Shown: one piece after another, positions 451-554 of the stretch
Numbering within the stretch: position 1 is the stretch's first letter
Layout of the letters: every line of letters begins with the position of its first letter
Origin: Escherichia phage ECO95 1-6-1
Sequence record: OR845698.1
Reading direction: 5' to 3' (one strand)
Length of the DNA stretch: 1,762 nt
The notes under the pieces: generated by a model
Database searches by the model: none
Seen by the model: the letters and a program-made list of their open reading frames with translations, nothing else
Told to the model about the DNA's origin: nothing
Position numbers and translations under genes: made by a program

Positions 451-475
451 AATCTATAACCGTGGTTATCAAAAG
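451..475 (-). promoter_or_regulatory. Putative PRM-like promoter for the repressor gene, probably producing a leaderless or near-leaderless mRNA
   Basis: No Shine-Dalgarno sequence lies upstream of the repressor ATG (minus strand reads ...GATAACCACGGTTATAGATT then ATG). Weak -10-like hexamers (GATAAC, TATAGA) overlap the OR3-like site. In lambda, cI mRNA from PRM is leaderless. Weak evidence. Confidence 0.3.
456..469. promoter_or_regulatory. Operator-like palindrome ATAACC-GT-GGTTAT (OR3-like, nearest the repressor start)
   Basis: Perfect 6-bp inverted arms with a 2-bp spacer read directly from the sequence, lying 6 bp from the repressor start codon (reverse complement of 448..450). Confidence 0.55.
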
Positions 476-479
476 TAAA

Positions 480-493
480 ATAACAATGCTTAT
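480..493. promoter_or_regulatory. Operator-like imperfect palindrome ATAACA-AT-GCTTAT (OR2-like)
   Basis: Same 6-2-6 architecture as the flanking sites with two arm mismatches. Its centre is 24 bp from the OR3-like site and 25 bp from the OR1-like site, giving the tripartite spacing expected of a lambdoid OR. Confidence 0.45.
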
Positions 494-521
494 GGACAAT
501 CTTCATAACTTGAGTTATCTT
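493..521 (+). promoter_or_regulatory. Putative PR promoter for cro (-35 TGGACA at 493..498, 17-bp spacer, -10 TATCTT at 516..521)
   Basis: Sigma70-like hexamers read from the sequence, positioned so that the OR2-like and OR1-like sites overlap the -35 and -10. This leaves a leader of roughly 25 nt containing the SD AGAGGA (542..547) before the cro ATG at 555. Exact hexamer assignment is uncertain. Confidence 0.4.
505..518. promoter_or_regulatory. Operator-like palindrome ATAACT-TG-AGTTAT (OR1-like, nearest cro)
   Basis: Perfect 6-bp inverted arms with a 2-bp spacer; it overlaps the proposed PR -10 region. Confidence 0.55.
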
Positions 522-554
522 TAGGTTCATCTAATAACCACAAGAGGAAAATTT

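Follow-up and report, generated by a model that had tools for sequence, protein, structure and literature searches.

The intergenic region between a cI-type repressor gene and cro in the 1,762-bp window (the whole stretch of DNA that was analysed) carries three ATAAC-N4-GTTAT palindromes, which very probably make up a three-site right operator (OR) belonging to the lambda-type lysis/lysogeny switch of a P22-like/lambdoid Salmonella enterica prophage, with the mechanism read by analogy with lambda. The window covers the immunity-to-replication segment of a lambdoid prophage. Its repressor gene lies on the minus strand at 34-450; the start conserved in all relatives is the ATG at 444-442 (MKTF...), the second ATG of the frame, on which gene callers agree (235-aa product). 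On the plus strand, cro occupies 555-779 and encodes 74 aa with matches to YdaS_toxin (E 2e-17) and P22_Cro (E 5e-6). Further right follow cII (910-1203; Phage_CII, E 9e-10), a small ORF (1236-1397) and a lambda-O-like replication gene, of which only the 5' part is present before it leaves the window at the right end. The stretch 451-554 is the entire 104-bp intergenic region, running from the repressor ATG (450, or the conserved 444) to the cro ATG (555).

The pattern ATAACNNNNGTTAT, searched at up to one mismatch, has exactly three matches in the window (456-469, 480-493 and 505-518) against a chance expectation of 0.07, and three or more matches were reached in none of 200 dinucleotide-preserving shuffles. 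The repressor-proximal site, OR3 (456-469, ATAACCGTGGTTAT), and the cro-proximal site, OR1 (505-518, ATAACTTGAGTTAT), are perfect palindromes with 0 mismatches. The middle site, OR2 (480-493, ATAACAATGCTTAT), carries a single mismatch, a G-to-C change at position 10 that leaves GCTTAT as its right half-site. Start-to-start distances are 24 and 25 bp. An earlier note on this DNA had described three 14-bp palindromes, two perfect and one imperfect, with centres 24-25 bp apart, and these measurements bear it out. Its consensus of ATAACC-N2-GGTTAT, on the other hand, fits only the first site (456-469): site positions 6 and 9 vary across the sites (C/T/A and G/A/T/C, respectively) and OR1 reads ATAACT-TG-AGTTAT, so that the core is ATAAC-N4-GTTAT, or more loosely ATAACY-N2-RGTTAT. 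A repeat search of 400-600 found, beyond the operators, two short two-copy matches of chance-like character and no second family of sites with operator-like spacing.

Other operator-like sequences were considered individually. An ATAACC half-site at 533-538 is not conserved in phages SH2026Stx1 or PA28, and it is therefore not counted as an extra site. An ATAACC-N11-GGTTTAT arrangement at 836-858, a candidate fourth operator, lies inside the nutR/tR1 module. Phage epsilon34, whose immunity is different, shares this module at 96% identity, which makes it improbable that the arrangement serves the present switch as an operator. The start of cro itself, ATGAATTTAGTTAT at 555-568, matches the operator core with two mismatches exactly 50 bp from OR1, a resemblance that most likely follows from the conserved coding sequence for MNLVI.

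The three sites overlap both the rightward early promoter and a putative leftward promoter for repressor maintenance. PR, the promoter of cro and the early right operon, has 9/12 consensus matches in a promoter scan and lies at 493-521 on the plus strand (-35 TGGACA at 493-498, a 17-nt spacer and -10 TATCTT at 516-521). OR1 fills the PR spacer, with its last three nucleotides forming the first three of the -10 hexamer, and OR2 overlaps the PR -35 by a single base, its own last and the hexamer's first. The candidate PRM occupies 451-479 on the minus strand (-35 TTTACT at 479-474, a 17-nt spacer and -10 TAGATT at 456-451), and OR3 sits between its two hexamers. This promoter was read by eye from the sequence; it scores 8/12, below the promoter-scan threshold, and for that reason has no entry in the scan. 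Its identity as PRM is suggested by analogy with lambda. Only 6 nt separate its -10 from the conserved ATG at 444-442. The lambda PRM has a TAGATT -10, 6 nt to the ATG and a leaderless cI mRNA, and the match in both the hexamer and the distance implies a leaderless repressor mRNA here as well; in agreement, the 11 nt between the ATG and OR3 leave no room for a ribosome-binding site. Centre distances rest on transcription starts predicted from the sequence at ~444 for PRM and ~528 for PR: on these values, the centre of OR3 lies at -18.5 from the PRM start and -65.5 from the PR start, that of OR2 at -42.5 and -41.5, and that of OR1 at -67.5 and -16.5, respectively. Among 28 OR variants from relatives, the PRM -35 (AGTAAA on the plus strand), the TA(G/T)ATT positions and the PR -10 are all conserved.

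The two proteins encoded on either side of the operator belong to different structural families and carry closely similar recognition helices. A full-length relative of the repressor contains an HTH_3 domain (E 3e-8) and a Peptidase_S24 domain (E 2e-17), and the nearest solved structure to the repressor N-terminal domain is the DNA-binding domain of the 434 repressor (1per/2or1; E 1.4e-9 over 63 residues). The nearest solved structure to Cro is Cro 3bd1, and its family is YdaS/P22_Cro. The recognition helices, SQPAIQKM in the repressor and TQPAVHKW in Cro, have Q-P-A-[IV]-x-K in common, and SQPAIQKM together with [ST]QPAVHKW is invariant in 81 of 81 site-carrying loci. When the repressor is aligned with helix 3 of 434 (TQQSIEQL), the glutamine that reads adenine 1 in the 434 structures (Gln28) is kept, Gln29 is replaced by proline and Gln33 by lysine. 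By analogy with the published 434 complexes, these changes would suit a half-site in which A1, A3 and A4 are unchanged while position 2 is T and position 5 an invariant C.

Two more divergent relatives, one locus each, appear from their sequences to point in the expected direction, with a changed helix accompanied by a changed site. The homologue in Superficieibacter, whose N-terminal domain is 63% identical, has the helices SQSSIWKL and SQATVWKW; its upstream region contains no match to ATAAC-N4-GTTAT and has different AT-rich palindromes. The Enterobacter sp. kpr-6 relative (L099, ~4840-5010) has a 434-like helix, KQQSLQAIEAG, beside three ACAG-N6-CTGT 14-mers, and it looks like another uncharacterised 434-type immunity variant.

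Conservation of the operator was assessed across 80 loci fetched from IMG/VR and two usable loci from species-representative genomes, Kluyvera and Superficieibacter; these were the only close relatives in the genome-contig scan, the remainder being distant HTH proteins. The 81 loci kept are those with a close repressor N-terminal domain and an MKTF-type start. They contain 29 distinct OR variants, every one of which has three sites at 24 and 25 bp. OR3 shows 0 mismatches in 29 of 29 variants in an independent site scan, and the OR1 position holds a perfect site in all 28-29. In an alignment of 28 variants, the half-site columns average 1.94 bits of information, compared with 1.34 for the four central positions and 1.30 for the inter-site spacers, with the invariance of OR3 in this calculation arising partly by construction because OR3 served as the alignment anchor. 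The half-sites are thus fixed while site centres and spacers drift. OR2 behaves differently from its neighbours, in that a perfect site (ATAACAAAGGTTAT or ATAACAATGGTTAT) is found in 17 of 28 variants. The earlier note had seen in the weaker middle site the usual pattern in which OR2 depends on cooperative binding; this is plausible for the window's variant, and for the left-operator site OL2 described below, but, with OR2 perfect in so many variants, its weakness is not something that the family conserves.

The OR triplet is common to coliphage HK639 and the Stx1-converting phages SH2026Stx1 and PA28, whose DNA is 71-76% identical (distant blastn), and to the Kluyvera genome. The sites read ATAACCGAGGTTAT / ATAACAAAGGTTAT / ATAACTTGGGTTAT in HK639, ATAACTACGGTTAT / ATAACAAAGGTTAT / ATAACTTGAGTTAT in SH2026Stx1 and ATAACCACGGTTAT / ACAACAATTGTTAT / ATAACTCATGTTAT in PA28. 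At megablast level, the sole close deposited phage record for the immunity part (36-780) is Salmonella phage S.Kent 1-2-1 (99.6-99.8%), and E. coli complete genomes contain nothing similar to bases 1-780. The exact Cro and the exact full-length repressor each occur on at least 1000 contigs, and the corresponding cluster entries are almost entirely from Salmonella enterica, with one from Cedecea, and are named generically as 'helix-turn-helix'.

The earlier note had pointed to the sequence left of the repressor gene as the place where matching sites should form a left operator (OL). This sequence lies outside the window, and the expected sites are present in relatives, some of which are 100% identical to the window over 46-1762. 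A lack of matching OL sites, which the note would have taken as a refutation, is not what the relatives show. Of the 81 loci, 75 have two sites 25 bp apart upstream of N, and some of these come from relatives that match the window at 99.8-100% identity; among the other six, four are too short, one has a single OL-type match and one has the sequence but no match. Stray matches amount to only 36 in the 732 kb of the 81 loci. In the 14.5-kb sequence of S.Kent 1-2-1 (L001), all five matches at up to one mismatch belong to the OR triplet or the OL pair, where 0.41 matches are expected and five were reached in 0 of 200 shuffles. Its OL sites, at 6906-6919 (ATAACTTAGGTTAT) and 6931-6944 (ATAACTTAATTTAT), are 25 bp apart upstream of the N-peptide gene and read, towards N, ...ATAAATTAAGTTAT-TGACC...ATAACCTAAGTTAT-CTT. 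The pL promoter of the relatives is TTGACC-17-TATCTT, and OL1 and OL2 are placed on it exactly as OR1 and OR2 are on PR; in HK639, the OL sites overlap the annotated putative pL. OL1 is perfect, whereas OL2 is always imperfect, with ATAAA as its left half (ATAAG in one) in all 50 OL variants, and a degenerate OL3, 20 bp further on, retains the ATAAC half alone. Ten Salmonella chromosomal loci with an identical Cro have the same OL despite differing cargo between cI and OL.

Two further features of the OL side were observed. A conserved GTTATC half-site lies ~23 bp past OL3 (L001 6880-6990, 50 OL variants) and might serve as a weak fourth site or belong to the promoter of a small rightward DUF2767-type gene. 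The cargo between cI and OL varies among relatives (L006 8175-9098, L001 7287-8210 and others), with examples including a 307-aa BstA_C-domain protein, a P63C-domain protein, an AAA_31/CbiA-like protein and pairs of unknown ORFs. Lambda carries rexAB between cI and OL, of which the BstA_C-type cargo is reminiscent, and the cargo may consist of defence genes co-transcribed with the repressor.

The OR1-OR2-OR3 layout proposed in the earlier note is therefore supported by the position between cI and cro, the overlap with PR, the 29 conserved variants and the OL pair in the relatives. The features of a lambdoid operator are found together here: sites between divergent genes, promoter overlap, an OL in relatives, a repressor with HTH and S24 domains (in the full-length relative) and a small Cro. 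One way in which this arrangement could mislead is if only Cro, or only the repressor, uses ATAAC-N4-GTTAT and the other regulator reads a different, unnoticed motif in the region. With a 434-like repressor and a Cro of the YdaS/P22_Cro family, shared recognition is indeed not guaranteed by homology, but the division of labour is made very improbable by the Q-P-A-[IV]-x-K motif of both helices, which is invariant wherever the sites occur, and by the lack of any other operator-spaced site family in 400-600. To our knowledge, the repressor and Cro share operators in every lambdoid switch that has been studied, which also counts against a split of this kind. We give slightly less credence still, and very little overall, to the idea that the palindromes are bound by some other host or phage factor, such as a cII-type activator, an antirepressor-linked regulator or a nucleoid protein, or are AT-rich promoter features without a binder. 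The region is AT-rich and overlaps promoters, as this idea would have it; yet the triplet was reproduced in 0 of 200 shuffles, and in Salmonella, E. coli and Kluyvera alike the sites accompany this cI/cro pair and are found again at pL.

The mosaic structure of the window bears on the last of these possibilities. At a joint at ~769, the end of cro, the sequence passes into a right-hand module (769-1762, comprising nutR, tR1, cII, the small ORF and the O gene) that is ~94-96% identical to the Salmonella phages epsilon34 and g341c, both of which have a different repressor, Cro and operators. Since these phages share the right module and not the immunity, the immunity cassette is a module that is exchanged on its own and has the cro stop as its right end; and since the nutR-cII-O module is common to epsilon34, whose operators differ, the sites go with the immunity genes rather than with cII or factors of the host. 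The right-hand module also contains a boxB-like hairpin at 813-826 (TCGCTGAAAAGCGA) and a tR1-like hairpin at 851-875 (GGTTTATGCG...CGCATAGCC), which correspond to the annotated putative nutR boxB and tR1 of epsilon34, and the RNA of 780-910 folds better than 200 of 200 shuffles (z = -3.2).

While the operators of the window are intact, its repressor gene is not. The window ORF encodes 138 aa, compared with 235-237 aa in relatives. Positions 46-1762 are 100% identical to the IMG/VR contigs L017 and L018, both of which encode the full 235/237-aa repressor, and positions 1-45 are unrelated to them; homology to the full-length relatives stops at 45/46, and the repressor reading frame stops three codons past this breakpoint (RRYYL|CKK*), a truncation at about codon 135. 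The gene still encodes the HTH domain, the linker and the beginning of S24, but the catalytic and oligomerisation portion is gone. The 138-aa product has no exact match in the protein look-up, the exact junction and left-flank patterns are absent from the viral and metagenome contigs searched, no plasmid matches the window, and no meaningful 12-mer of window positions 1-40 occurs in any fetched locus. An IS element, a deletion or an assembly artefact may account for the truncation.

With a truncated repressor beside intact operators, the switch may be disabled in this copy. Taken further, the sites would be genuine operators by descent but a relic here, the repressor having lost its C-terminal domain for dimerisation, cooperativity and autocleavage through the rearrangement at 45/46; in that case, the prophage would be defective, or would be kept in check by an N-terminal fragment that is weak and non-inducible or by the repressor of another prophage. 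We regard this as possible, although rather unlikely, and it is compatible with the main explanation of what the sites are. The shortened ORF in a sequence otherwise identical to L017 and L018, together with the absence of the truncated product and the junction from every collection searched, argues in its favour. On the other side, the window shows no more than 45 nt of the foreign sequence, which leaves room for an artefact of assembly or of the window edge, or for a very recent event; cro, PR and the three sites are also undamaged and do not differ from their counterparts in relatives that look functional.

The architecture of the operator can be set beside that of well-studied phages. As in lambda, three related palindromes lie between divergent cI and cro genes with an inter-site spacing of ~24 bp, O1 and O2 overlap PR, O3 lies inside PRM, and the O2 centre falls at about -42 from the predicted PRM start. 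Further likenesses are a second operator at pL upstream of N and an S24 autocleavage domain at the C-terminus of the repressor. Unlike lambda, with its 17-bp sites of the TATCACCG type, the window has 14-bp sites with ATAAC half-sites, and its repressor N-terminal domain is 434-like rather than lambda-like. With 434, the window shares the fold, the 14-bp operator length, A at half-site positions 1, 3 and 4, and the glutamine that contacts A1 in 434. It differs from 434 in having T2 in place of C2 and an invariant C5, in its helix (SQPAIQKM rather than TQQSIEQL) and in its Cro, which belongs to the YdaS/P22_Cro family and is no homologue of 434 Cro. No ACAA-N6-TTGT is present in 440-560 at up to one mismatch, and the specificity is not that of imm434.

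More broadly, operator patterns of lambda, 434, P22 and epsilon34 have no match in 440-560 at up to one mismatch, so the earlier note was right that the half-site is unlike those of lambda, 434 and P22. Its suggestion of a distinct immunity specificity holds with respect to these textbook phages but not in the sense of a unique one, as the specificity is probably common to HK639, PA28, SH2026Stx1 and many prophages. Papers on 933W, BAA2326, epsilon34 and N15 describe operators different from ATAAC-N4-GTTAT: the epsilon34 consensus is WTACRAWWTGTAT (PMC2629481), the 933W sites are 15 bp long with G at position 2 (PMC3317979), and the BAA2326 sites are barely symmetric (PMC5977221). The switch of 933W nonetheless shares the lambdoid arrangement, AAC at half-site positions 3-5 and an OL with fewer strong sites than OR. 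The Koudelka laboratory has proposed that a lysine in its recognition helix reads G in the C-G pair at position 5 (PMC3317979). Its 15-bp sites have a central base pair, so their half-site spacing differs from that in the window, and searches found no similarity to 933W in DNA or in Cro. H-19B, considered as a phage of the same immunity, was ruled out because its OR and proteins differ. Six site strings of the present operator family occur in no searchable paper. The half-site may already have been predicted in earlier work: it might be tabulated in the comparison of lambdoid and Shiga-toxin-phage immunity regions of 2000 (Genes Genet Syst 75:223; PubMed 11245215) or in the comparative paper by Hall, Lefevre & Cordes from 2005 (J Mol Biol 350:667).

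By analogy with lambda, the switch would work as follows. Dimers of the cI-type repressor, with its 434-like HTH domain, its SQPAIQKM helix and, in intact copies, its S24 domain, would bind each 14-bp site, and Cro dimers would bind the same three sites through TQPAVHKW. Repressor on OR1 and OR2 would block PR, while repressor on OR2, about 42 bp upstream of the PRM start, could stimulate the weak leftward PRM, whose transcript would begin at the repressor ATG and be leaderless. Filling of OR3 by excess repressor or by Cro would turn PRM off. In intact relatives, the matching OL, ~2 kb to the left and outside the window, overlaps pL upstream of N. In this scheme, the binding of both proteins, the existence and leaderless start of PRM, its activation from OR2, the order of affinities and cooperativity are all carried over from lambda.

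HK639, PA28 and SH2026Stx1 probably have the same operator specificity as the window, judging from an OR triplet at 24/25 bp, an OL pair and identical recognition helices. They differ from the window in DNA that is 71-76% identical, in site centres and spacers, and in their hosts, which are E. coli. HK639 differs further in having a very different repressor C-terminal domain and put RNA in place of N. A comparison of its cI (L002 3515-4204) with L001 8298-9002 reveals a domain-level mosaic inside one operator-specificity group. A more tentative proposal, which we put forward as an open possibility rather than as the likelier case, is that the operators and the invariant helices define one uncharacterised, cross-genus homoimmune group comprising very common Salmonella P22-like prophages, HK639, Stx1 phages of E. 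coli O157 and a Kluyvera prophage, in which a single DNA-binding module is combined with C-terminal domains for induction and cooperativity of at least two very different kinds.

Taken together, the tripartite cI/Cro operator appears real and statistically solid on evidence that is comparative throughout. It introduces no new principle, the architecture being the lambda/434 paradigm, and the literature searched yielded no experimental description of this immunity type. The palindromes are almost certainly the right operator of an ordinary lambda-type switch carried by a common Salmonella prophage, which itself has gone unstudied but holds no surprises within so familiar a type of system. The analysis supplies the operator sequence, promoter layout and likely recognition helices for an immunity type that occurs in Stx1 phages of E. 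coli and, in Salmonella enterica, on at least 1000 contigs. These are useful for prophage annotation, for predicting superinfection immunity and cross-repression (including that of Stx1 phages) and as orthogonal repressor/operator parts. If the homoimmune group is real, resident prophages could cross-repress incoming or co-resident Stx1 phages while differing from them in inducibility.
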